A stretch of DNA of 64,000 bases from Deltaproteobacteria bacterium. GTDB taxonomy: Bacteria; Desulfobacterota; GWC2-55-46; S146-80. Below, piece by piece: positions 1,978 to 64,000 of the stretch; position 1 is the first letter of the stretch, and every line of letters begins with the position of its first letter. Made by a program: the position numbers and the translations under genes. Location: contig WGFJ01000140.1 in NCBI GenBank assembly GCA_015492305.1, forward strand, positions 287-64,286, given 5' to 3'. The notes below the pieces were generated by a model, which worked only from the letters and a program-made list of their open reading frames with translations, was not told where the DNA came from and ran no database searches.

Positions 1978-3662
1978 CGGGTAAGTCCCAGTTCCTTTTT
2001 GACCGCCTCGATCTTCTTCAGGACCTCATCCCTCTTCTCGAGGTCGTAGGACCTCTCATAGAGTTCCAGGGCCTTCTCCTTCATGCTCTTCTTGTAGTAA
2101 GCATCTCCAAGGTGTTCGGTTATGATGGGATCGTCAGGGGTATAACGGACAGCCTTCTCAAGGAGTTCTATGGCCTTCTCGTAGTTGCCCTTCTTGAAGT
2201 AGACCCAGCCAAGGCTGTCGATGATGTAACCACTGTTTGGCTTTATCTCCAGGGCCTTCTTTATCAACCTCTCTGCCTCATCAAGGAGGATACCCTTCTC
2301 CGCATAGGTGTAGCCAAGGTAGTTGAGGGCCTCCGCAAAGTCAGGTTTGAGGCTTATGCTCTTTTTCATCGCCTCTATCATCTTCTCGTCTTCGTCAAGG
2401 TCGTCGTAGAGGACACCCAGGGTAAAGTAAAGGTAGGGGTCATCGGGGTGGAGGGAAAGGGCCCTCTTGATACTCTCTATACCCTCCCTGATCCTCCCCG
2501 CCTCCTTGTAGACATTGGCAAGGATCCTGTAGACATCCACATTCTTTGTCTTCTTCGCAACCCCCTCAAAGTAGCTTATGGCCTCGTCAAGCATCCCCAT
2601 CTCCTTATAGATCATGGCTATCTGCAAGAGGGCATCCCTGTAAACAGGTGATGATGGGGGGATGGGCTTCAATACCTCAAGGGCCTTCTCATACTCACCC
2701 TTCTGGCTGTAGGCCACTCCAAGATAGTACCTCACCTCATGGGCCTGGGGATCTGCTGCAAGGGCAAGGTTGAACTGGGTTATGGCCTCATCCACCTTCC
2801 CCTGTTCCATGTATATGAGGCCTATCTTCACCATGGCGTCGACCTTGTTGCTGCCGAAGCGCTCAAGCTCCCTGTACTCCTTTATGGCCTCCTCGTACCT
2901 CTTCTCCCTTATGAGGAGCTGACCCAGCCTGCGGCGGAGGTTTTCATTGCCAGGCCTCAGCTGGAGCGCCCTCTTGTAGGCCTCTATGGCCTTATCCCTC
3001 TTGTTCATAAACTCATAGACAAGGCCAAGGTCTATCAGGGCACCGTAGAAGTCGGGGTGATACTCAAGGGCCTTGAGCAGATACTCTTCGGCCTTCTTGT
3101 AGTCGCCCTTGTCCGCATAGGCCCTTCCAAGGTAGTAATGGGCCATGACAGAATCGGGCTTTCTCTCCTTGTATTTGAGGAGGATCTCAATGGCCTTGTC
3201 ATACTCCTTGAGATCGCTGTAGAGGGCAGAGAGGAGTATGTAGGCCTTCTCGTTATCCGGATCGAGCTGGAGGACCTTCTTATACTCCTCTATGGCATCC
3301 CTTGTCCTCTTCTGGGCCGTATAGAGATCGCCAAGGAGGAGGTGGGCCTTACTGTAATCCTCGTGTTCAAGTGCCTCCTTGAGTTCCTTGATGGCCTCCT
3401 CTATCAGCCCCTTCCTCAGGTAGAGGGAGGCAAGCTCTGTGTGGAGGAGGGCAGAGAAGGGATCGGCCTTGAGGGCCTTCTTATACTCGGCGATGGCCTT
3501 GTCTATCTTCCCTTCTTTCAGGTAGAGCTGGGCTATGGCGTAGTGCTCATAGGGGTTACCACTCCTTGAAAAGAAGGAGAAGGCCCTGGCTTGAGAAAGG
3601 GGAAAAAAGAAAAGGGATAGGGTTATGATTGCAATAAAAAAGGACTTCCTATATATTAACAT
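1974..3662 (-). CDS. tetratricopeptide (TPR) repeat protein with N-terminal signal/anchor
   Basis: About 15 tandem 34-aa repeats with the A/L/Y/G/P pattern (…AxxxYxxALxxDP…). Hydrophobic N-terminus. Confidence 0.85.
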   Translation of the reverse strand: MLIYRKSFFIAIITLSLFFFPLSQARAFSFFSRSGNPYEHYAIAQLYLKEGKIDKAIAEYKKALKADPFSALLHTELASLYLRKGLIEEAIKELKEALEHEDYSKAHLLLGDLYTAQKRTRDAIEEYKKVLQLDPDNEKAYILLSALYSDLKEYDKAIEILLKYKERKPDSVMAHYYLGRAYADKGDYKKAEEYLLKALEYHPDFYGALIDLGLVYEFMNKRDKAIEAYKRALQLRPGNENLRRRLGQLLIREKRYEEAIKEYRELERFGSNKVDAMVKIGLIYMEQGKVDEAITQFNLALAADPQAHEVRYYLGVAYSQKGEYEKALEVLKPIPPSSPVYRDALLQIAMIYKEMGMLDEAISYFEGVAKKTKNVDVYRILANVYKEAGRIREGIESIKRALSLHPDDPYLYFTLGVLYDDLDEDEKMIEAMKKSISLKPDFAEALNYLGYTYAEKGILLDEAERLIKKALEIKPNSGYIIDSLGWVYFKKGNYEKAIELLEKAVRYTPDDPIITEHLGDAYYKKSMKEKALELYERSYDLEKRDEVLKKIEAVKKELGLTR

Positions 3663-3715
3663 GGCCTTAAAAATTAAGATATCACAGCCCCTCTGCGGAG
3701 GTCAACCTCTAAGTT

Positions 3716-4900
3716 ATGGAAACCCTGACGGCATTGCTCCTCATAGCCATCATCTCCTATGTGAGTAACAGGATCACCCCTGTCCTTGTGAGGCTCCCCA
3801 TAGGGGCCCAGCATGTCCTGTTTACAGGCACAGAATACCTCTTTCTCGGACTCCTCCTCGGTCCTTATCTGATAGGCTTTTTGTCGAAGGAGGTCCTTGA
3901 CCAACTCAGACCCTTTGTCAGTCTTGCCCTGGGTTGGATCGGACTCCTCTACGGTCTCCAGTTCAACTGGCGGGACATAAGGACCTTTCCCCTCATCTAC
4001 ATGCCCATAGCCTTCCTCCAGGCCCTGATAACCATGGGTATAGTCTTCATTGTCTTCTACCCTGTACTCGGTTATCTCCTTGGAGGGAACAGGCTCCTCT
4101 ATCCCCTTCTCATTGCCCTTTCCGCATCGGCCTCCCTCACCTCACCCTCTGCAATTGCGGTCCTTCACAGGAGGGTGGAGATAAAGGAAAGGGACCTCGT
4201 CACCCTTGTCAGGTACATATCCGGCATAGATAGCCTGATAGGTATAACCATCTTCGGCCTCACCTTTGCCATCTTCCACATCACCTACGGCTACAACCAG
4301 GGACTCCTACCACTGGAGTGGTTCCTGCTCACCATCGGCCTATCCCTCTTCCTTGCCATGATCTTTAACCTCTGCCTGCTCCTCCCTTTAACGAGCAATG
4401 AGTTTCTCGCTGTAACAACGGGGATGGTGGTATTCTCCAGCGGTGTGGCCTCCTTCCTCTACCTCTCTCCCCTCTTTGTGAGCATGGTCATGGGCCTCAT
4501 CATCGCGAATACCTCTTCAAAGCGTGAGATCCTCTATGAGAACCTGGTGAGGGGAGAAAGGCCCTTCTACATCATCTTCGTGATCATAGTTGGAGGGCTA
4601 TGGACTGTCGAGCCCCTCTGGGGAGGCATAGGGGCCCTCATATACACCCTTGCCAGGGTGGCCGGGAAGTACCTTGGAGGGATATACGCTACCGCGATCT
4701 TCAAACCCCCCTTTCCCATACCCAGAGACCTTGGCCTTGCCCTGCTCTCCCAGGGAGGGGTTGCCATTGCCATAGCAGCAAGCCTCCAGCAGACATACCA
4801 GACCACCCTCACGCCCACAGTAATGACCATCATCCTCACAGGGGTCATCATAAACGAATTCCTCGGTCCCAGATACCTTATGAAGGTCCTGAGCAAATGA
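3716..4900 (+). CDS. cation:proton antiporter (Na+/H+ exchanger family)
   Basis: Polytopic membrane protein of about 12 TM segments with a CPA-family layout. Confidence 0.6.
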   Translation: METLTALLLIAIISYVSNRITPVLVRLPIGAQHVLFTGTEYLFLGLLLGPYLIGFLSKEVLDQLRPFVSLALGWIGLLYGLQFNWRDIRTFPLIYMPIAFLQALITMGIVFIVFYPVLGYLLGGNRLLYPLLIALSASASLTSPSAIAVLHRRVEIKERDLVTLVRYISGIDSLIGITIFGLTFAIFHITYGYNQGLLPLEWFLLTIGLSLFLAMIFNLCLLLPLTSNEFLAVTTGMVVFSSGVASFLYLSPLFVSMVMGLIIANTSSKREILYENLVRGERPFYIIFVIIVGGLWTVEPLWGGIGALIYTLARVAGKYLGGIYATAIFKPPFPIPRDLGLALLSQGGVAIAIAASLQQTYQTTLTPTVMTIILTGVIINEFLGPRYLMKVLSK

Positions 4901-6911: not shown

Positions 6912-8784
6912 GCCCTGTTTCCTGGAGGAGGAGGGATCTTGCTGAGGCCTTTATCCCCTCTTCGTCTATCCCGCACTGCTTCCTTAACTCCTCCTGGCTG
7001 CCGTGCCTGATGAAGGCATCGGGGATACCAAGCCTCCTTACAGTCACACCCCTTACGGATCTCCTCTCGAGCATCTCAAGGACAGCACTCCCGAAGCCAC
7101 CCATGAGGGTATTCTCCTCAACGGTAAGGATCCTGTTTGTCCTGTTGAGGTAGGAAAGGATGAGTTCCTCATCTATGGGCTTTGCAAAGCGGGCATTTAT
7201 GACCGCCACCTTGAACCCTTCCTTTTCAAGCTCTTCGGCAGCCTTAAGAGAGGGGTGTACCGTGCTCCCTATGGCAATGATCAGAAGGTCGGTACCGTCC
7301 TTCAGGACCTCACCCCTGCCAAGCTCTATGGAGCCGGTCTCAAAGGACCTGCCAACCCCCTTTCCTCTGGGATAGCGTATGGCCACAGGTCCCTTCAGTT
7401 CAAGGGCCTTCTCAAGCATGGCTGGCAACTCCACCTCATCCCTCGGGGCCATGACCACCATATTCGGTATATGCCTCAGATAGGAGAGATCGAACAGGCC
7501 GTGGTGGGTAGGCCCGTCTGCCCCCACGATACCTGCCCTGTCGATGGCGAAGATCACATGGAGGTCCTGAAGGCAGACATCATGGATGATCTGGTCAAAG
7601 GCCCTCTGGAGGAAGGTGGAGTATATGGCCACCACAGGGACGAATCCAGAGATGGCAAGGCCTGCAGCAAAGGTTACGGCATGCTGTTCGGCTATCCCCA
7701 CATCGAAGAACCTATCGGGGAAGACCCTGCTGAAGGCATCGAGCCCGGTCCCCTCGGGCATGGCTGCTGTTATGGCAACAATCCTCTCATCCCTTCTGGC
7801 AAGTTCTATGAGGGTACGGCTGAAGACCTCTGTGTAGGTTGGGACCTTCCCCCTGGAAAGGGGCTTACCCGTTGCAACATCAAATGGTCCCACACCGTGG
7901 AACCTGGATGGATCCTCCTCGGCAGGCCTGTAACCCTTGCCCTTCTTTGTAAGGACATGGACAAGGAGGGGTCCCTTTGCATCCTTTATACCCTCCAGTG
8001 TCTCTATCAGCTGGCCCATGTTGTGCCCGTCTATAGGACCGATGTAGTTGAAGCCAAGGCCTTCGAAGAGCATCCCAGGGGTCAGGAGGGATATAATGGA
8101 GTCCTCGGCCTTCTTGGCGATGGAGACCATCCCATCCCCTATCCTGGGTATGAAGTGAAGGAAGGACTGGATCTCCCTCTTAAGCTTGTTTGCAAACCTG
8201 CCCGTCACCTTCCTGCTGAGGAAGGAGGCAAGGGCCCCGACATTCCTGGCTATGGACATCTCGTTATCGTTGAGGATGACGATGATATCCTTCTTGAGGT
8301 GACCTGCCTGGTTCAGGGCCTCAAAGGCCATGCCGGCCGTCATGGCCCCATCCCCTATAACGGCGATCACCTTGTAGTCCTTTCCCTCAAGATCCCTGGC
8401 TGAGACCATACCGAGTCCGGCAGAGATAGAGGTGCTGCTGTGGCCGGCAACAAAGGCATCGTAGGGGCTCTCAGAGGGGGTGGTAAAACCGCTTATCCCC
8501 CCTGACTGCCTCAGGGTATGGAAGACCTTCCTCCTGCCTGTGAGGATCTTGTGGGCATAGGCCTGATGCCCCACATCCCATATGATCCTGTCCCTGGGGG
8601 CATCAAAGACACGGTGGATGGCTATGGCAAGCTCAACGGCACCAAGGCTTGACGCAAGGTGGCCGCCTGTCTTTGAGACCGTATCGATGATGAGTTCCCT
8701 TATCTCTCCTGCAAGGCTTGAGAGTTCCTCCAGGGAGAGGGACTTCAGGTCCTGTGGTCCGTCTATCCTCTCAAGGATGCTCAT
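6889..8784 (-). CDS. dxs: 1-deoxy-D-xylulose-5-phosphate synthase
   Basis: DXS-typical N-terminus ([13 protein letters not shown]…[16 protein letters not shown]), transketolase-like TPP domains, 631 aa. Confidence 0.95.
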
Positions 8785-28892: not shown

Positions 28893-29713
28893 ACCTCCTT
28901 CCTCCAGATGAGTTCCTTCACCGTGTCATACCTGAAGACAGGACCATCCTTACACACAAAGTAGGGTCCAAACTGACAGTGGCCGCAAAGCCCTATGGCG
29001 CACTTCATATTCCTCTCCATGGAGAGGAATATCTTCTCCTCCTTCAGTCCTGCCTCCATAAGGGCCCTCACGGTAAAGCGCATCATCACCTCGGGTCCAC
29101 ATACCATGGCTGTTGTGTGGTATGGATCGAAGCGGGCCCTCTCAATAAGGGCCGTTACCACACCAACATTGCCCTTCCATGTGGAGGATGCGGAATCCAC
29201 GGTCACATCCACATACATGTCGAACCTCCCCCTCCACCTGTGGAGTTCCCTCTTGTAGAGGAGGTCATCCGGTGTCCTTGCACCGTAGAGGAGGAGGAAT
29301 CTGCCAAAGTCCTTCCTCCTTGAGAGGACATCGTAGACCACAGGCCTTAAAGGGGCAAGCCCAACCCCCCCTGCCACAAGGAGGATATCGTCACCCCTGG
29401 CCTCATCCACAGGCCATGGGTTACCAAAGGGCCCCCTCACGCCTATGGGGTCCCCCTTTTTCAGTCTCCCTATAAGGCCCGTGACAGAACCCACCATCCT
29501 CACCGTATGGACCACCCTGTCCATCTTTCCAGGGTCTCCGCTTATGGAGATGGGCACCTCCCCTGCACCAGGGAGGTAGAGCATGTTGAACTGACCCGGC
29601 CTGAACCGGAAGGGCCTCCCGTAGCCTTCCAGGGTAAGGGTCACAACATCCCCTGTCTCCCTCCTTATCTGTCCTACAGAGAGGATGGCTGGAATGAGGG
29701 GGTGGCCCATCAC
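28889..29713 (-). CDS. sulfhydrogenase gamma-like FAD/NAD(P)-binding subunit with [2Fe-2S] site
   Basis: PyrK-like oxidoreductase fold with C-terminal [10 protein letters not shown]. Confidence 0.75.
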
Positions 29714-34822: not shown

Positions 34823-35757
34823 AGAGGTGGGAACCCCTCTCCTTTGAAGGGGTGAAGAGGAGATCCATAGGGGAGAGGGCAAGCAAGGTAAGGGAAGGGG
34901 ACCTCGCCACACCCCTGAAGAAGGGAGCCTCCTTAAGGGAGTTCCTGGAAGGGCTCCCTGACATCCTCGGAGCAAGGGACCTCATAGCCCTTGCAAAGGA
35001 GATAGGGGAATCGAGGAAGAAGGGAAGGCCAGTCATCCTCGGGATGGGTGCCCATGTCATAAAGACCGGTCTTTCCCCGGTGATCATAGACCTCATGGAG
35101 GAAGACATCATCACAGGTGTTGCCATGAATGGTGCCGGGATCGTCCATGACTTCGAGCTTGCCCTTGCCGGAAAGACATCGGAGGATGTGGACAGGGAGA
35201 TAGACGAGGGGATGTTCGGCATGACCGAAGAAACGGGAAAGATCCTGAACAGCGCCATAAAGAGAGGGGTTGAGAGGGGCTACGGCATAGGGGAGGCCGT
35301 GGGCAGGGAGATACTGGAGTCCTGCCCGAACAGGGAGATCAGCATCCTTGCGGCAGGGGTGAGGCTGAACAAGCCTGTAACCGTCCATGTGGCCCTTGGC
35401 ACCGACATCATCCACATCCACCCTGAGGTGGACGGGAAGGCCATAGGGGAGGGAGGGATGAGGGACTTCCGCATATTCTGTGGCCTTGTTAAAGACCTCG
35501 AAGGAGGGGCCTACATCAATGCGGGATCTGCTGTGATACTGCCAGAGGTCTTCCTGAAGGCCCTTACCCTTGTGAGGAACCTCGGCTACAGGGTGGAAAG
35601 GTTTGTCACGGCAAACATGGACTTCATCCAGCACTATAGACCCCTTACCAATGTGGTAAGGAGGCCCACAAAGAAGGGAGGAAAGGGTTTTTCACTAACA
35701 GGCCACCATGAGATAATGCTCCCCCTCCTTGCAGCCGCCGTAAAGGAGTATATGTGA
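34819..35757 (+). CDS. deoxyhypusine synthase family protein (DHS-like NAD-binding)
   Basis: The segment LGMGAHVIKTGLSPVIIDLMEEDIITGVAMNGAGIVHDFELAL aligns by eye with the DHS core (LGLAGAMVPAG…VTTGANLTHD). Confidence 0.55.
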   Translation: MKRWEPLSFEGVKRRSIGERASKVREGDLATPLKKGASLREFLEGLPDILGARDLIALAKEIGESRKKGRPVILGMGAHVIKTGLSPVIIDLMEEDIITGVAMNGAGIVHDFELALAGKTSEDVDREIDEGMFGMTEETGKILNSAIKRGVERGYGIGEAVGREILESCPNREISILAAGVRLNKPVTVHVALGTDIIHIHPEVDGKAIGEGGMRDFRIFCGLVKDLEGGAYINAGSAVILPEVFLKALTLVRNLGYRVERFVTANMDFIQHYRPLTNVVRRPTKKGGKGFSLTGHHEIMLPLLAAAVKEYM

Positions 35758-35761
35758 GGCC

Positions 35762-36979
35762 CTACGCCTCTATTGTCCTTCCCTTCCTCGGGATCACTAC
35801 TATCTTCGATGGATCAACGGTGTAGCGGAGACGATCCTTCTTCGGATCAAAGCCTATCTCCTCACCCTCCTCTATTACATTGTGCTTGTCCACAATCACC
35901 CTCTTCAACCTGCACCCCTTCTTGAGAACAACACCCTCCATGATGATACACTCCTCAACAGAAGCACCTTCCTCAACAACCACACCGCTCCTGAGGATCG
36001 AATCCCTGATAAGGCCCCCATGGATCACCGTTCCCTCTGCAATGGAGGAGTTCACCACCTCTCCACCGAAGATCCTCACAGAGGGACCACCTTCAACGCC
36101 GGAATGGATGGGCCAGTCCTGATTGTCCAGTTCGAACCTTGGCTCTTTGCCGAGCATGTCCATGTGGGCGTTGAAGTAGGAGGATATGGTCCCCACATCC
36201 CTCCAGTAGGCCCTCTCCTCGTAGGGTCTTATGCCTGGAACCACGTTGGTCGCAAAGTCATAGGCATAGACCCTACCGGTCCTCACAAGGTCCGGTATCA
36301 CATGGGCACCGAAGTCGTGTTGATCCTTCTTCTGGGCCTTTATAAGGGCCTCTACAAGGACATCCCTGTTGAAGATGTAATTCCCCATGGAGACATAGGC
36401 CATGGATGGGTTGCCGGGCATGGGAGTGGGACTTTCAGGCTTTTCCTGAAACCCAACAATCCTGTTCTCCTCATCTGCCACGATCACACCAAAGGCAGAT
36501 GCCTCTTCAAGGGGCACAGGCCTTGCGGCCACGGTAACAGAAGCCCCCCTGGAGAGGTGGAAATCCACCATCTGCCTCACATCCATCCTGTATATGTGAT
36601 CTGCGCCAAAGATGATGACGATCTCAGGGTTGTGGTCGTTTATGAGGTTTATGTTCTGAAAGACCGCATCCGCTGTCCCCTGAAACCACTCAGGTCCCAC
36701 CCTCATCTGGGGAGGGACTATGGCTATAAAGTGATCCCTCACAAGGGGGGAAAAGACCCAGTTCTGCCTCACGTGCTCGATAAGGGACTGGGATTTGTAC
36801 TGGACAAGGAGGTATATGGAGTAGATGTGGGAGTTTATGAGGTTGCTGAGCACGAAATCCACGATCCTGAACCTCCCACCGAAGGGGACAGCAGGCTTCG
36901 AGCGGTAGGCTGTAAGGGGATAGAGCCTCTCCCCCTTTCCCCCGGCAAGGACAAAGGCAAGTATCTTTGGATGGGCCAA
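35762..36979 (-). CDS. glgC: glucose-1-phosphate adenylyltransferase
   Basis: N-terminal LAGGKGERLYPLT…KPAVPFGG, with a left-handed beta-helix C-terminus. TTG start. Confidence 0.9.
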   Translation of the reverse strand: MAHPKILAFVLAGGKGERLYPLTAYRSKPAVPFGGRFRIVDFVLSNLINSHIYSIYLLVQYKSQSLIEHVRQNWVFSPLVRDHFIAIVPPQMRVGPEWFQGTADAVFQNINLINDHNPEIVIIFGADHIYRMDVRQMVDFHLSRGASVTVAARPVPLEEASAFGVIVADEENRIVGFQEKPESPTPMPGNPSMAYVSMGNYIFNRDVLVEALIKAQKKDQHDFGAHVIPDLVRTGRVYAYDFATNVVPGIRPYEERAYWRDVGTISSYFNAHMDMLGKEPRFELDNQDWPIHSGVEGGPSVRIFGGEVVNSSIAEGTVIHGGLIRDSILRSGVVVEEGASVEECIIMEGVVLKKGCRLKRVIVDKHNVIEEGEEIGFDPKKDRLRYTVDPSKIVVIPRKGRTIEA

Positions 36980-37082
36980 GGACCACCTCCTTCTGGAATC
37001 TCGCCAAGATTATAGCATCCCTTCTGCAGAAGGACAAGTGAGGGCAGGATCCGTTGATGATGAAATCAAAGGCAAAAGGTGG

Positions 37083-37094: not shown

Positions 37095-37862
37095 ATGAAG
37101 GCGATCTGGAAGGGAAGCATAACCCTTGCCCTGGTGAGCATCCCTGTCAAGGTCTACGGGGCCACCCACCACAGGGGCATAAGCTTCAGGCTCCTCCACA
37201 GGCCCTGCTCTACCCCCTTGAGATACGAGAAGTTCTGTCCCACCTGCAACAGGGAGGTTGGAAGGGAAGAGATAGTCCATGGCTACGAATACGAGAAGGG
37301 GAGGTTTGTGACCATCACCGATGAAGAGCTTGAAAAGGTGGCCATCAAGACCTCCAAGGCCATAGAGATCCTGAAGTTTGTGGATCCCAGGGAGGTGGAA
37401 CCCACCTTCTACGACAGGGCCTTCTACCTTGAACCCCAGGAAGGGGGTGAGAGGGCCTACACCCTCCTCAGGGAGATCATGAGGATGACCGACAAGGTAG
37501 GTCTTGCAAAGATAGCCATGAGGGAGAGGGAGCACATAGGGGTGATAAGGATCTGGGGGAAGACGCTCGTCCTCCACACCCTTTACTACGCGGACGAGGT
37601 CATGAGGCCAGAGGCCCTGCACATCCCAGAGGGAATCCGTCTCGAAGAGGAGGAACTTTCCCTTGCAAGGGAACTGGTCAAGCACTTCACAGGCCCCTTT
37701 GACATCGAGAGATACCACGATGAGTTCAGGGAATCCCTCATGGAACTCATAAGGGCAAAGATAGAAGGTAAGGAGATAAAGGTCCCCCCGAAGAGGGAGG
37801 TCGAGAAGGTTGTAAGCCTCATGGAGGCCCTGAAGAAGAGCCTGGAAAAGAAGGCGGTATAG
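37095..37862 (+). CDS. ku: Ku protein (non-homologous end joining)
   Basis: Canonical N-terminus MKAIWKGSITLALVSIPVKVY. The upstream ORF-track GTG extension was rejected. Confidence 0.9.
   Translation: MKAIWKGSITLALVSIPVKVYGATHHRGISFRLLHRPCSTPLRYEKFCPTCNREVGREEIVHGYEYEKGRFVTITDEELEKVAIKTSKAIEILKFVDPREVEPTFYDRAFYLEPQEGGERAYTLLREIMRMTDKVGLAKIAMREREHIGVIRIWGKTLVLHTLYYADEVMRPEALHIPEGIRLEEEELSLARELVKHFTGPFDIERYHDEFRESLMELIRAKIEGKEIKVPPKREVEKVVSLMEALKKSLEKKAV
37818..37858. repeat. 41-bp direct repeat, copy 1 (encodes the Ku C-terminus)
   Basis: CTCATGGAGGCCCTGAAGAAGAGCCTGGAAAAGAAGGCGGT is identical to 38438-38478. Confidence 0.95.
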
Positions 37863-37875
37863 CCTGCTGCAAACC

Positions 37876-38199
37876 TTGAGTGCCGATATCCTGGAATTTA
37901 TCCGGTCTTGCGTAAGAGATCACAGGGTGTATTGGACCTATCATGTCAATATGCGGTTGAGGGAACGCTTCATACCCCGTAAAGCCATCCTGGCTTCGGT
38001 GGATTCATATGAGATAATCGAAGAGTATCCGGATGATAAATACTTACCGAGCTATCTGATCTATGCAGAGTACGAAGGGGAGGTCTTCCATATCCACATC
38101 GCTACCGACATGGATAACAACAACATAAGGATAGTGACGGCCTATAAGCCCACCATAGATAAGTGGGAGAAGGATTTCAAAACAAGGAGGAAGAAATGA
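37876..38199 (+). CDS. DUF4258-like protein (putative toxin-antitoxin component)
   Basis: A 107-aa protein that I recognise as DUF4258-like. Lower-GC codon usage than its surroundings. Confidence 0.5.
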   Translation: MSADILEFIRSCVRDHRVYWTYHVNMRLRERFIPRKAILASVDSYEIIEEYPDDKYLPSYLIYAEYEGEVFHIHIATDMDNNNIRIVTAYKPTIDKWEKDFKTRRKK

Positions 38200-38417
38200 A
38201 TTGCCGTATCTGTGGGGGAAAGCTGGAGAGTGTTATCACCGATATGCCCTTCAAGGTCAGGAACAACTCCATCGTTATCATAAAAAAACTGCCCCTTCTA
38301 CAGTGCAAAAACTGCAATGAATACCTCATCGAGGATGCCGTGATGGAAAAGGTGGATGAGATCCTGGCCAGAGTCGACCAGACAGCAGAGCTTGAGGTCC
38401 TAAGCTATGCTGTATAA
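38196..38417 (+). CDS. YgiT-type zinc-finger protein (MqsA-like N-terminal domain), putative antitoxin
   Basis: Start set at MNCRICGG. Carries CxxC…CxxC (CRICGG…CKNCNE), as in YgiT/MqsA zinc-finger domains. Confidence 0.55.
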   Translation: MNCRICGGKLESVITDMPFKVRNNSIVIIKKLPLLQCKNCNEYLIEDAVMEKVDEILARVDQTAELEVLSYAV

Positions 38418-38437
38418 AGAACATATGGACCTTTGGT

Positions 38438-38478
38438 CTCATGGAGGCCCTGAAGAAGAGCCTGGAAAAGAAGGCGGT
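38438..38478. repeat. 41-bp direct repeat, copy 2 (encodes the LigD C-terminus on the minus strand)
   Basis: Identical to 37818-37858. The minus-strand translation …PPSFPGSSSGPP* forms the ligase C-terminus. Confidence 0.95.
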
Positions 38479-62652: not shown

Positions 62653-64000
62653 ATGTCCAGGCTGGTAGTGGTATCACTGCTCCTCCTTTCCATCCTTGGC
62701 TGCGGTAAGGATACATCCGTAGAGGCTGAAAAGCACTTCAAGAGGGCCACAGAATATCAGCAAGAAGGCAATCTGAGGGGTGCATTCATAGAGCTAAAGA
62801 ACGCCGTGGATCTCGCACCTGATCGGGTGGACTACAGGAAGGAGCTTGCCCTTGTCTACTACAAGCTCGGACGGTATGAATCGGCCCTCAAGGAGTTTGA
62901 GGCCGTCCTCAAGGAAGACCCTGCCTCAAAGGATTCCCTCCTTTACATCAGCAGGATATACCTTGAGAAAGGCCAGTTCGACAAGGCCCTTGAATCTGCC
63001 CAGAGGCTCCTCGATGCAGGGGGGCCATCAAGAGAGGCCCTCTATGTAATGGCCTCTGCACGGATGGGCAAAGGGGACCTCCAGAAGGCAAAGAAGATGT
63101 ACTTGAAGATCCTTGAGATGGAGCCCAGTGACAGTAAGGCCCTCTTGGGGCTTGCCAGGGTCTACACAGAAGAGGGGAACTACGAGGAGGCGGAAAGGCA
63201 GATCAAGAGGGCAAAGGAAGGTGGAGAGTCCATCGATATCCTCTACGCCGAGGCAGAGCTTGAGGCCAGGCGCTCAAGGTACAAGGAGGCTGCAGAGATA
63301 CTCAAGAGGATCCTGGAGATGGACCCCGATCAGCCAAGGGCCTATATACTGCTCACCACAGCCTATCTTGGCCTTAAGGACTTTGAGAAGGCCAAGGAGG
63401 AGGCTGAGGAACTCATCAAGAGATATCCCAAAAGGCCAGAAGGTTATTACTTCAAAGGCCTCTCCCTCCTTTCAGGAACCAACAGGGTAAAGGAGGCCAT
63501 CGAGTACCTTCAGAAGGCAACCACCATCTATCCTGGATACCTTCTTGCCCATTACTTCCTTGCCCTTGCCCACTACAAGGATCGCAACTACGAACAGGCC
63601 ATAAGCGAACTCCAGATGGTCCTCAACATAGATCCCAACTTCCACAGGGCCCGCTTACCCCTTGCCATCCTCTACCTCACAAAGGGGTATCTCGACGATG
63701 CCCTCAGGGAGGCGGGAAGGGCCGTTGAAAAGGACCCCAAGAATCCCCTTGCCCACAATATCCTTGGAACAGCCTACATCATGAAGGGGGAACACGACAG
63801 GGGGCTTGAAGAGTTCAAAAAGGCCCTTGACCTGGACCCGGACTTCACCGACACCTACGCAAGGCTTGGTGGTTACTACCTCACAACGGGTAACATCGAG
63901 GAGGCCATAAAGGAGTACAGGGCAGCCCTGAAGATAGATCCAAGACTCCTCAACATAAGGATCTTCCTCGGAATGGCCCACATGAGGAAGGGAGAGTACG
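62653..64000 (+). CDS. TPR-repeat lipoprotein (PrsT-like, PEP-CTERM system type), 5' part; continues beyond the window
   Basis: Lipoprotein signal (LLLSILGCGKD) followed by uninterrupted TPR repeats to the window edge, with no stop codon. Confidence 0.7.
   Translation, partial: MSRLVVVSLLLLSILGCGKDTSVEAEKHFKRATEYQQEGNLRGAFIELKNAVDLAPDRVDYRKELALVYYKLGRYESALKEFEAVLKEDPASKDSLLYISRIYLEKGQFDKALESAQRLLDAGGPSREALYVMASARMGKGDLQKAKKMYLKILEMEPSDSKALLGLARVYTEEGNYEEAERQIKRAKEGGESIDILYAEAELEARRSRYKEAAEILKRILEMDPDQPRAYILLTTAYLGLKDFEKAKEEAEELIKRYPKRPEGYYFKGLSLLSGTNRVKEAIEYLQKATTIYPGYLLAHYFLALAHYKDRNYEQAISELQMVLNIDPNFHRARLPLAILYLTKGYLDDALREAGRAVEKDPKNPLAHNILGTAYIMKGEHDRGLEEFKKALDLDPDFTDTYARLGGYYLTTGNIEEAIKEYRAALKIDPRLLNIRIFLGMAHMRKGEY

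Follow-up and report, generated by a model that had tools for sequence, protein, structure and literature searches.

Organization of the ku-ligase locus

The DNA analysed here is a 64-kb stretch (the window) of contig WGFJ01000140.1 from the Deltaproteobacteria bacterium assembly GCA_015492305.1, and its subject is a small toxin-antitoxin (TA)-like cassette located in it between the ku gene and the ATP-dependent DNA ligase gene of a bacterial non-homologous end-joining (NHEJ) locus (Table 1). The two NHEJ genes lie side by side in convergent orientation, an order that is kept in relatives, and encode a Ku protein (TIGR02772) and a ligase of the NHEJ clade (TIGR02779). The Ku sequence matches the TIGR02772 profile (Ku_bact) with an E value of 7e-87, beginning at residue 21 of the 274-amino acid (aa) open reading frame (ORF), and the PF02735 domain with an E value of 6e-46. 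The ligase ORF shows only the PF01068 and PF04679 domains and falls below the cut-offs of the full-length LigD models. Other loci and contigs that were compared with the window are designated by L-numbers.

Table 1. Coordinates of the features of the ku-ligase locus in the window, and junctions of related loci with short overlaps.
Feature	Position	Strand	Remarks
ku	37095..37862	+	255 aa from ATG 37095; upstream GTG 37038 would give 274 aa; stop TAG 37860-37862
Repeat copy 1, left junction	37818..37858	+	codes LMEALKKSLEKKA and the GT of Val; unchanged in L001 and L002
Inserted unique DNA	37859..38437	+	579 bp: 17 nt, two overlapping ORFs and 20 nt
DUF4258 toxin-like gene, 107 aa	37876..38199	+	PF14076, E 1.8e-16; TTG start 13 nt past the ku stop
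YgiT/MqsA-type zinc-ribbon gene, 73 aa	38196..38417	+	TIGR03831, E 3.7e-10, above cut-off; CxxC...CxxC (four Cys)
Repeat copy 2, right junction	38438..38478	+	minus strand codes PPSFPGSSSGPP and the ligase TGA stop 38439-38441
NHEJ ATP-dependent DNA ligase, ligase domain only, 323 aa	38439..39410	-	TIGR02779, E 7e-86; PF01068, PF04679
Loci with a 4-bp ku/ligase overlap	L004, L007, L012, L013, L015, L017, L025		junctions near locus position 6927-6936

The cassette is delimited by two copies of the 41-nt direct repeat CTCATGGAGGCCCTGAAGAAGAGCCTGGAAAAGAAGGCGGT, hereafter R, which are 100% identical and lie 620 bp apart from start to start. None of 100 dinucleotide shuffles of the window contained two matches to CTCATGGAGGCCCTGAAGAAGAGCCTGGAAAAGAAGGCGGT, even when up to three mismatches were allowed, and a k-mer census found R to be the sole exact direct repeat of at least 20 bp across the 64 kb. 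The perfect repeat reported by the first-pass annotation of this DNA is therefore real and unique in the window. The unique DNA between the copies has a GC content of 45.8%, 8 points under that of its surroundings (54.1% for the window), in agreement with the lower-GC insert that had also been described.

The final 41 sense bases of ku are repeat copy 1. The Ku C-terminus, ...LMEALKKSLEKKAV, ends in a Val codon whose third base, together with the TAG stop, is located just outside the copy, and the ATAG (37859-37862) that completes this codon and the stop forms the first four bases of the insert; the reading of copy 1 as coding for the Ku C-terminus stands with this refinement. The GTGA next to copy 2 is a vestige of the original end of ku, an in-frame Val codon and stop. 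The left junction reads GTAAGC-R-ATAGCCTGC and the right junction reads CCTTTGGT-R-GTGAGGCAC.

On the minus strand, copy 2 encodes the last 12 residues of the ligase and its stop codon, as had been claimed; however, the protein is not the multidomain LigD that had been named, since it consists of the ligase domain only. It ends in ...GPEEC-LTPPSFPGSSSGPP*, and the TIGR02779 profile stops at residue 309 of 323. The 14-residue tail LTPPSFPGSSSGPP results from read-through into the antisense strand of the ku 3' end, with 12 of the 14 residues coming from the repeat, while in most of the clade the ligase stops 2-5 residues past the conserved ...PEEC. Judged by these comparisons, the repeat-encoded tail is an unconserved read-through. 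Because it lies outside the profile and relatives have short tails, the preservation of both reading frames need not mean that selection acts on the ligase tail.

The exact 73-aa antitoxin sequence was also found in a 102-kb scaffold from ENA (L001) and in a 2-kb contig of an NCBI metagenome-assembled genome (MAG; L002). L001 is 99.9% identical to the window, with 14 single-nucleotide polymorphisms (SNPs) in 12.2 kb, and L002 is 99.6% identical, with eight SNPs in 2 kb. Both carry the two repeat copies, and SNPs also distinguish them from one another; a single SNP, at 38145, falls within the cassette. These data bear on whether the structure could have been created during assembly, that is, whether a de Bruijn assembler could have worked a distinct small molecule with the same 41-mer into a chromosome whose site is in fact empty, a concern raised by a repeat length within the range of assembler k-mers. 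Three assemblies show the same structure; L001 and L002, at least, stem from different data sets, and SNPs distinguish the assemblies. In addition, L001 is a scaffold of 102 kb, a replicon of 620 bp is implausible, and the reading frames are exact at both junctions. Since three non-identical assemblies share the structure, an assembly artefact is very unlikely, and we regard it as the least probable of the explanations considered in this work.

Empty sites in related genomes

A scan of relatives with one genome per species gave 80 ligase loci, and nearer relatives were obtained from later protein searches. Among the 80 loci, the cassette was absent from all but L001 and L002. The closest genomes of the scan were MAGs of Nitrospirota/Thermodesulfovibrionales, with ligases 55-63% identical to that of the window. 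In seven of the nine closest convergent relatives, ku and the ligase gene overlap by exactly 4 bp, in which their two stop codons share bases (TTAA in six loci and TTAG in the seventh), and the remaining two show a 53-bp spacer and a 2.5-kb insert, respectively. The spacer (L006:6931-6983) contains an inverted repeat, GGAGTATTGGA...TCCAATACTCC, a candidate bidirectional terminator replacing the overlap. The 2.5-kb insert (L010:6927-9483) contains two paralogous ORFs of 235-244 aa, with a 300-nt repeat that is 79% identical, and a third ORF.

Nearer relatives provide the empty site. The 1,093-bp contig L095 encodes a ligase (P0122) that is 84% identical in amino acid sequence and has the same tail as in the window (TTPPSFPGSSSGPP); its ku 3' end, ...VVSLMEALKKSLEKKAV, overlaps the ligase gene by 44 bp, and the junction reads ...GTGAGC-[R 41/41]-GTAG-TGCACTC..., with no cassette. 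Contigs L099 and L100, with a Ku (P0242) 77% and a ligase 76% identical in amino acid sequence, also show a 44-bp overlap with a single R (37/41) followed by GTAG-TGCACTC and no cassette; L099 derives from the ENA sample that also gave L001. A fourth locus, L101, encodes a ligase 64% identical to that of the window, and here the overlap with ku is 38 bp. After in-silico removal of the 579 bp and one R, the remaining sequence aligns colinearly across the junction to both L095 (81.5% in 1,092 columns) and L100 (75% in 1,761 columns); the filled site is the empty site plus 620 bp, made up of 579 unique bp and a second copy of 41 bp of the overlap. With this second copy, ku ends in the left copy and the ligase gene in the right copy, and both ORFs remain intact.

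The first-pass annotation had expected related ku-ligase loci to show a direct 3' overlap and no cassette, and three contigs (L095, L099 and L100) are of this kind. Its model of an insertion with duplication of the overlap that left both frames intact is supported by these empty sites, by the colinear in-silico excision, by the lack of the cassette at the other related NHEJ loci and by the foreign base composition of the insert, and it is the parsimonious reading. The long antisense overlap that it postulated also exists, although it measures 44 bp including both stop codons rather than about 41 bp.

In the subclade of the window, a small deletion took the ligase stop, so that the ligase reads 12-14 codons into the antisense strand of ku and the overlap is 38-44 bp. 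From the distribution of these structures, the long overlap is a derived feature of a small subclade, and the lineage of the window gained the cassette within this overlap. The opposite polarity, with an ancestral cassette and empty sites produced in relatives by precise R x R excision, would account for the same pair of structures, as excision between perfect 41-bp repeats yields the exact empty-site sequence, and the R of L095 is 41/41 identical although its flanks are only about 81% identical. Nevertheless, it demands at least three independent losses, in the lineages of L095, L099/L100 and L101 and, beyond them, in the distant relatives with 4-bp overlaps, instead of one gain, and it leaves the cassette with a GC content 8 points below that of its surroundings. 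One gain is far more parsimonious than at least three precise losses and the lower GC content agrees with it; thus, a gain is favoured and an ancestral cassette is highly improbable.

No perfectly conserved stretch shared by the window and these relatives is longer than the one at R, which extends over 46 bp in L095 (the next longest is 23 bp) and over 25 bp in L099/L100. Dual coding on the two strands, for the conserved Ku C-terminus and for the ligase ORF, suffices to explain this conservation; alternatively, R may serve as a site of recombination or may have been homogenised as the element passed through.

Content and predicted function of the cassette

The two genes of the insert are the DUF4258-like and the YgiT/MqsA-type zinc-finger genes that had been recognized from the sequence, and profile searches assign them to PF14076 and TIGR03831, respectively. 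They are small, co-directional and adjacent, are translationally coupled and are kept as a pair, as in TA modules: the ATG of the antitoxin gene overlaps the stop of the toxin gene (ATGA, 38196-38199), and the second repeat copy begins 20 nt after the antitoxin stop. In every context examined (L083, L084, L093 and L106), the 73-aa partner is directly 3' of the toxin gene with the same 4-bp overlap.

The toxin belongs to the BECR, RelE/MqsR-like RNase fold. Its family has more than 1,700 homologues at E < 1e-5, mostly of exactly 107 aa and 64-77% identical end to end, which validates the TTG start of the window toxin. H23, R27, R31 and H72 are invariant residues. No obvious Shine-Dalgarno sequence precedes this TTG (37876 in the window; L001:5681-5756); the homologues whose starts were read (L083, L084, L093 and L106) begin with ATG, unlike the window gene, and the gene caller used for L001 and L002 annotated a truncated toxin of 82 aa.

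The antitoxin contains the N-terminal zinc-ribbon domain of MqsA, which is the toxin-binding domain, and a weak sequence match (E about 0.03) links it to 3hi2 and 3ga8, two structures of the MqsA N-terminal domain. It has no helix-turn-helix (HTH) domain, and it scores 23.6 bits with the MqsA-family model TIGR03830, for which the cut-off is 61.8. The pair is best described as an MqsR/MqsA-like module whose antitoxin consists of the toxin-binding zinc ribbon only, with predicted toxicity and neutralisation. It would act as an RNase toxin of the MqsR type together with an antitoxin that binds it. PADLOC gave no match to a known defence system.

No promoter-like (sigma-70-like) or terminator-like site was predicted on the plus strand of the insert. 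Because there are only 17 nt upstream of the toxin gene, no promoter-like site and an antitoxin without a DNA-binding domain, the cassette is probably transcribed by read-through from ku. In the relative L084, the toxin gene starts 6 nt after a thioredoxin gene.

Distribution and mobility of the cassette family

The proposal that the module targets the NHEJ locus was not borne out. Four further members of the cassette family lie in contexts that have nothing to do with NHEJ and show no repeats on either side, and no flanking direct repeats of at least 10-11 bp were found around L083, L084, L089, L093, L094 or L106, which indicates that the cassette family is not a repeat-generating element as such. 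Nucleotide similarity to the other family members (69-73%) is limited to 37885-38416, that is, from toxin codon 4 to the antitoxin stop. In L093, the DUF4258/zinc-ribbon pair lies inside a perfect 15-bp inverted repeat (~470-485 / ~1056-1071; GTTAGATGAAATGCC / GGCATTTCATCTAAC), which was not seen at the other loci. There is no evidence for a functional link of the cassette to NHEJ. The NHEJ locus was also rejected as a general hot spot for TA insertion, since among about 20 close relatives only one (L008, described below) has a TA pair beside the ligase gene; L006, L009, L010, L011 and L014 show other inserts or none at this locus.

Neither a transposase nor a recombinase was found in or beside the element, and the insert ends carry no terminal inverted repeats. 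A transposon, insertion sequence or miniature inverted-repeat transposable element was discarded given this lack of terminal inverted repeats, a duplication of 41 bp instead of less than 15 bp, the occurrence of just one copy in the window and the lack of non-coding ends shared among family members. An integron cassette or a hairpin attachment site was discarded as well, as there is no attC, only 20 nt lie past the antitoxin stop and no hairpin structure is present. Folding was no better than that of shuffled sequences for R (z -0.14), the junctions (-0.56) or the right junction (-1.98). Searches of the phage and IMG/VR collections gave no relatives of the cassette, and plasmids gave only three matches, at 29-36% identity. 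Exact-protein look-ups of the toxin and of the ligase gave no matches, and a 24-mer from the repeat recovered, among JGI metagenome contigs, only three distant Ku genes (about 30% amino acid identity) that share the codons for LKKSLEKK.

These results also bear on a site-specific integration, in which the 620-bp unit (R plus cassette) would be a non-autonomous element with a ku 3' end as attP and the overlap as attB, mobilized by a tyrosine or serine recombinase acting in trans, so that the two R copies would be the attL and attR cores. An identical 41-bp core on both sides, an element-side arm that restores the stop of the target gene and the exceptional conservation of R in L095 and L099/L100 would all be expected from such an element. 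However, although an enzyme encoded elsewhere in the genome may act in trans, no recombinase lies in or beside the element, R has neither dyad symmetry nor a hairpin, the window contains neither another cassette flanked by R nor a further copy of R, and the other family members have no conserved ends or repeats. No phage or viral relatives were found, the three plasmid matches are distant, and dual coding can account for the conservation of R. Site-specific integration is therefore an unlikely origin.

Origin of the insertion

As a whole, the locus is best explained, with good probability, by a true horizontal gain, in which a minimal type II TA-like cassette without a promoter was inserted into the 44-bp ku/ligase overlap. 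How the duplication arose is a separate question, and the bases next to the two copies of R are informative about it. The A-TAG that follows copy 1 mirrors the Val-TAG end of ku (GTG TAG) that is present in four of four long-overlap relatives, and copy 2 is followed by G-TGA. This comparison suggests that the two 47-bp ku ends may be homologues from two sources rather than a strict duplicate.

We tentatively favour a homology-assisted capture, to which we give, as a rough estimate, slightly less than half of the weight among the mechanisms. In such a capture, the incoming DNA would already have held a homologue of the ku 3' end (the repeat and A-TAG) beside the cassette. It could then have been integrated by a RecA-type single crossover of a circularised fragment or by one-sided, homology-facilitated illegitimate recombination, and in both cases the shared segment would end up as a direct repeat. 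Cutting by a transposase with a 41-bp stagger would be a less likely route.

A second locus shows a comparable arrangement. In the unrelated Nitrospiraceae MAG contig CAZXCW010000172.1 (L008, 3057-4146), a BrnT/BrnA TA pair (3335-3616 and 3618-3881) is located directly after the NHEJ ligase gene. This pair, which consists of a BrnT protein (PF04365) and a CopG-type antitoxin (PF12441), differs from that of the window, and on each side of it lies the ligase 3' end, as a 173-nt direct repeat whose copies are only 84% identical. The distal copy has kept an open frame and its stop, with 15 synonymous versus 11 non-synonymous codon differences, and it is closer to the ligase of another lineage (91%) than to that of its own contig (82%). 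Together with 60 bp of downstream flank, the distal copy is 83% identical to L103, which upstream of the insertion is 94-98% identical to L008, and the BrnTA pair is missing in the close relatives of L008 (L102-L105). Both the window and L008 fit an integration of DNA that would have carried a piece of the 3' end of the neighbouring gene.

The strongest competitor of homology-assisted capture is a de novo long target duplication, in which a staggered break of ~41 nt in the overlap would have been filled in and a blunt 579-bp fragment ligated, for example by Ku/ligase end-joining. R would then be a true target-site duplication and the A-TAG would be the lucky first bases of the insert. Perfectly identical copies with sharp boundaries are what a fill-in would leave, the flanks of the insert show no homology to anything else, and an NHEJ system is encoded at the site itself. 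The stop codon is a difficulty: if exactly 41 bp had been duplicated, the chance of meeting an in-frame stop at once would be about 3/64 (about 5%), and the range is about 1.6-5% when the clade-typical TAG is considered. If the duplication had instead covered 45 bp of ancestral sequence (R+GTAG), four substitutions would be needed in about five sites, compared with none in the other 82 repeat positions. Nor does a fill-in predict the homeologous repeat (84%) of the analogous L008 locus. We consider this origin possible but less than likely.

The repeat could also have preceded the insertion, with a tandem duplication of the overlap followed later by an unrelated insertion at the junction of the copies. 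Each of these steps is ordinary alone, and the junction is the only place where selection would tolerate an insertion. This sequence of events nevertheless places two rare events at the same nucleotide, no relative with an R-R tandem intermediate exists among those compared, and the difference between ATAG and GTGA would stay unexplained; hence, it is very improbable.

Several observations weigh against the insertion as we read it, and in particular against homology-assisted capture. No donor with the cassette beside ku was found, and the homology-assisted step is one that we infer; likewise, no excised or circular form is visible in the assemblies. ku and the ligase gene are equally diverged from L100 (77% and 75% nucleotide identity), so that no imported ku segment is detectable, and an import of ku together with the cassette was rejected for this lack of discordance between the two genes. 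After copy 2, three adjacent substitutions (AGT -> GAG) relative to all empty sites are explained by none of the models. The staggered-break duplication is still compatible with the data, the stop coincidence being only about 5%. Finally, expression of the toxin may be weak, given its TTG start without a Shine-Dalgarno sequence.

Other features of the window

In both the window and L001, ku is separated from a 312-aa gene by a glgC-like nucleotidyl-transferase gene, which lies on the minus strand at 35762-36979 of the window and matches PF00483 in L001. The related L099 has no such gene, and its homologous 317-aa gene is directly followed by ku. No flanking repeat of at least 8 bp was found around the region of this gene (window 35749-37076). 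The window also contains an exact inverted match of 26 nt (CCCTGTACTCCTTTATGGCCTCCTCG) at 2870-2895 and 63897-63922, on opposite strands and 61 kb apart, and a perfect palindrome of about 26 nt near 29019 (~29007-29032). No tRNA genes were found in the window.

Comparison with known systems and significance

Insertion with long target duplication was named by Kobayashi's group for restriction-modification (RM) units, and its mechanism is unknown (Nobusato et al. 2000, Gene 259:99; Furuta, Abe & Kobayashi 2010, PMC2853133; review by Mruk & Kobayashi, PMC3874152). Cases from Haemophilus and Thermus have repeats of 46 bp and 47 bp, and the length in other cases reaches about 400 bp; the insertions carry no mobility genes, and the duplications often overlap gene 3' ends (PMC2853133, PMC3874152). 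The locus of the window resembles them in being a small addiction-type unit without transposase or integrase, flanked by repeats of more than 30 bp that are single at the empty site; furthermore, its repeat is unique and overlaps the 3' end of the flanking gene, and the insert deviates in its GC content. The marks by which Furuta et al. 2010 recognized such events can be compared directly. Their direct repeats of more than 30 bp correspond here to flanks of 41/41 bp, their empty site to the single R of L095 and L099/L100, which aligns with both copies, and their limit of 20 kb without a mobile element to an insert of 579 bp with two ORFs only. The formal mode matches, whereas the cargo is a TA-like pair instead of an RM unit. 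Two further differences are that the duplicated segment is the overlap of two convergent genes and that bases of the insert restore the stop at the left copy. A limited literature search found no report of this mode of insertion for a type II TA cassette. The event is the acquisition of a TA-like cassette in the known class of insertions with long target duplication, and no new class of system.

As for the cargo, the pair differs from MqsR/MqsA (ygiU/ygiT in Escherichia coli) in that its toxin is included in Pfam DUF4258 and not in the MqsR family, and in that the cassette has no promoter of its own. In addition, the antitoxin lacks the C-terminal HTH, so that operator binding and autoregulation in the manner of MqsA cannot occur. 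DUF4258 has been described as a BECR-fold type II toxin family, with its activity given as 'Unknown', no references listed for it, and with known DUF4258-MqsA fusions (Gerdes 2025, PMC11980606), and it has been equated with Ntox49, of the colicin-like branch (2026 preprint, bioRxiv 10.64898/2026.08.28.747851). The partner in the window is an MqsA-like zinc-finger protein of the same type as in these fusions; however, the gene order tabulated for the family is antitoxin-toxin (PMC11980606), whereas the subfamily of the window is consistently toxin-antitoxin.

Other integrative systems share single traits with the locus. As in tRNA/tmRNA-type integrative elements, the direct repeat is the 3' end of the target gene and the element side restores the gene end, here its stop, but there is no integrase, the unit is no longer than 620 bp, dyad symmetry is missing from the repeat and no sign of excision was detected. 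Integrons commonly carry TA pairs, and their TA cassettes are, like the one described here, promoterless, made up of ORFs only and expressed from outside. In contrast to them, the cassette of the window has no attC and no hairpin, neither an integron integrase nor a cassette array is present, and integron insertion does not produce a 41-bp duplication.

A more speculative reading, which we regard as improbable, is that the overlap and the cassette together make up a minimal mobile unit of 620 bp, which would move between related Nitrospirota with no recombinase of its own. The long repeats would let such a unit leave the chromosome in circular form, and host RecA or the Ku/ligase end joining encoded at the target would bring it into other genomes, where its own overlap sequence would stay behind. 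If true, this would explain the 41/41 overlap between species otherwise about 81% identical, and it would extend the life cycle of long target duplication proposed for RM units to promoterless TA cassettes that ride on host transcripts.

The pair of filled and empty sites shows a two-gene addiction-type cassette that entered a chromosome without a transposase or an integrase and left two overlapping ORFs unharmed, and it extends to TA-like cargo an insertion mode so far described for RM units. The surrogate stop of this locus, together with the homeologous 173-nt repeat of L008, gives a testable hint that such insertions may be homology-assisted events and not true target-site duplications. 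With its 41-bp homology, its 620-bp unit, an antitoxin without HTH and a promoterless cassette that presumably depends on ku transcription, the locus is a simple experimental system.

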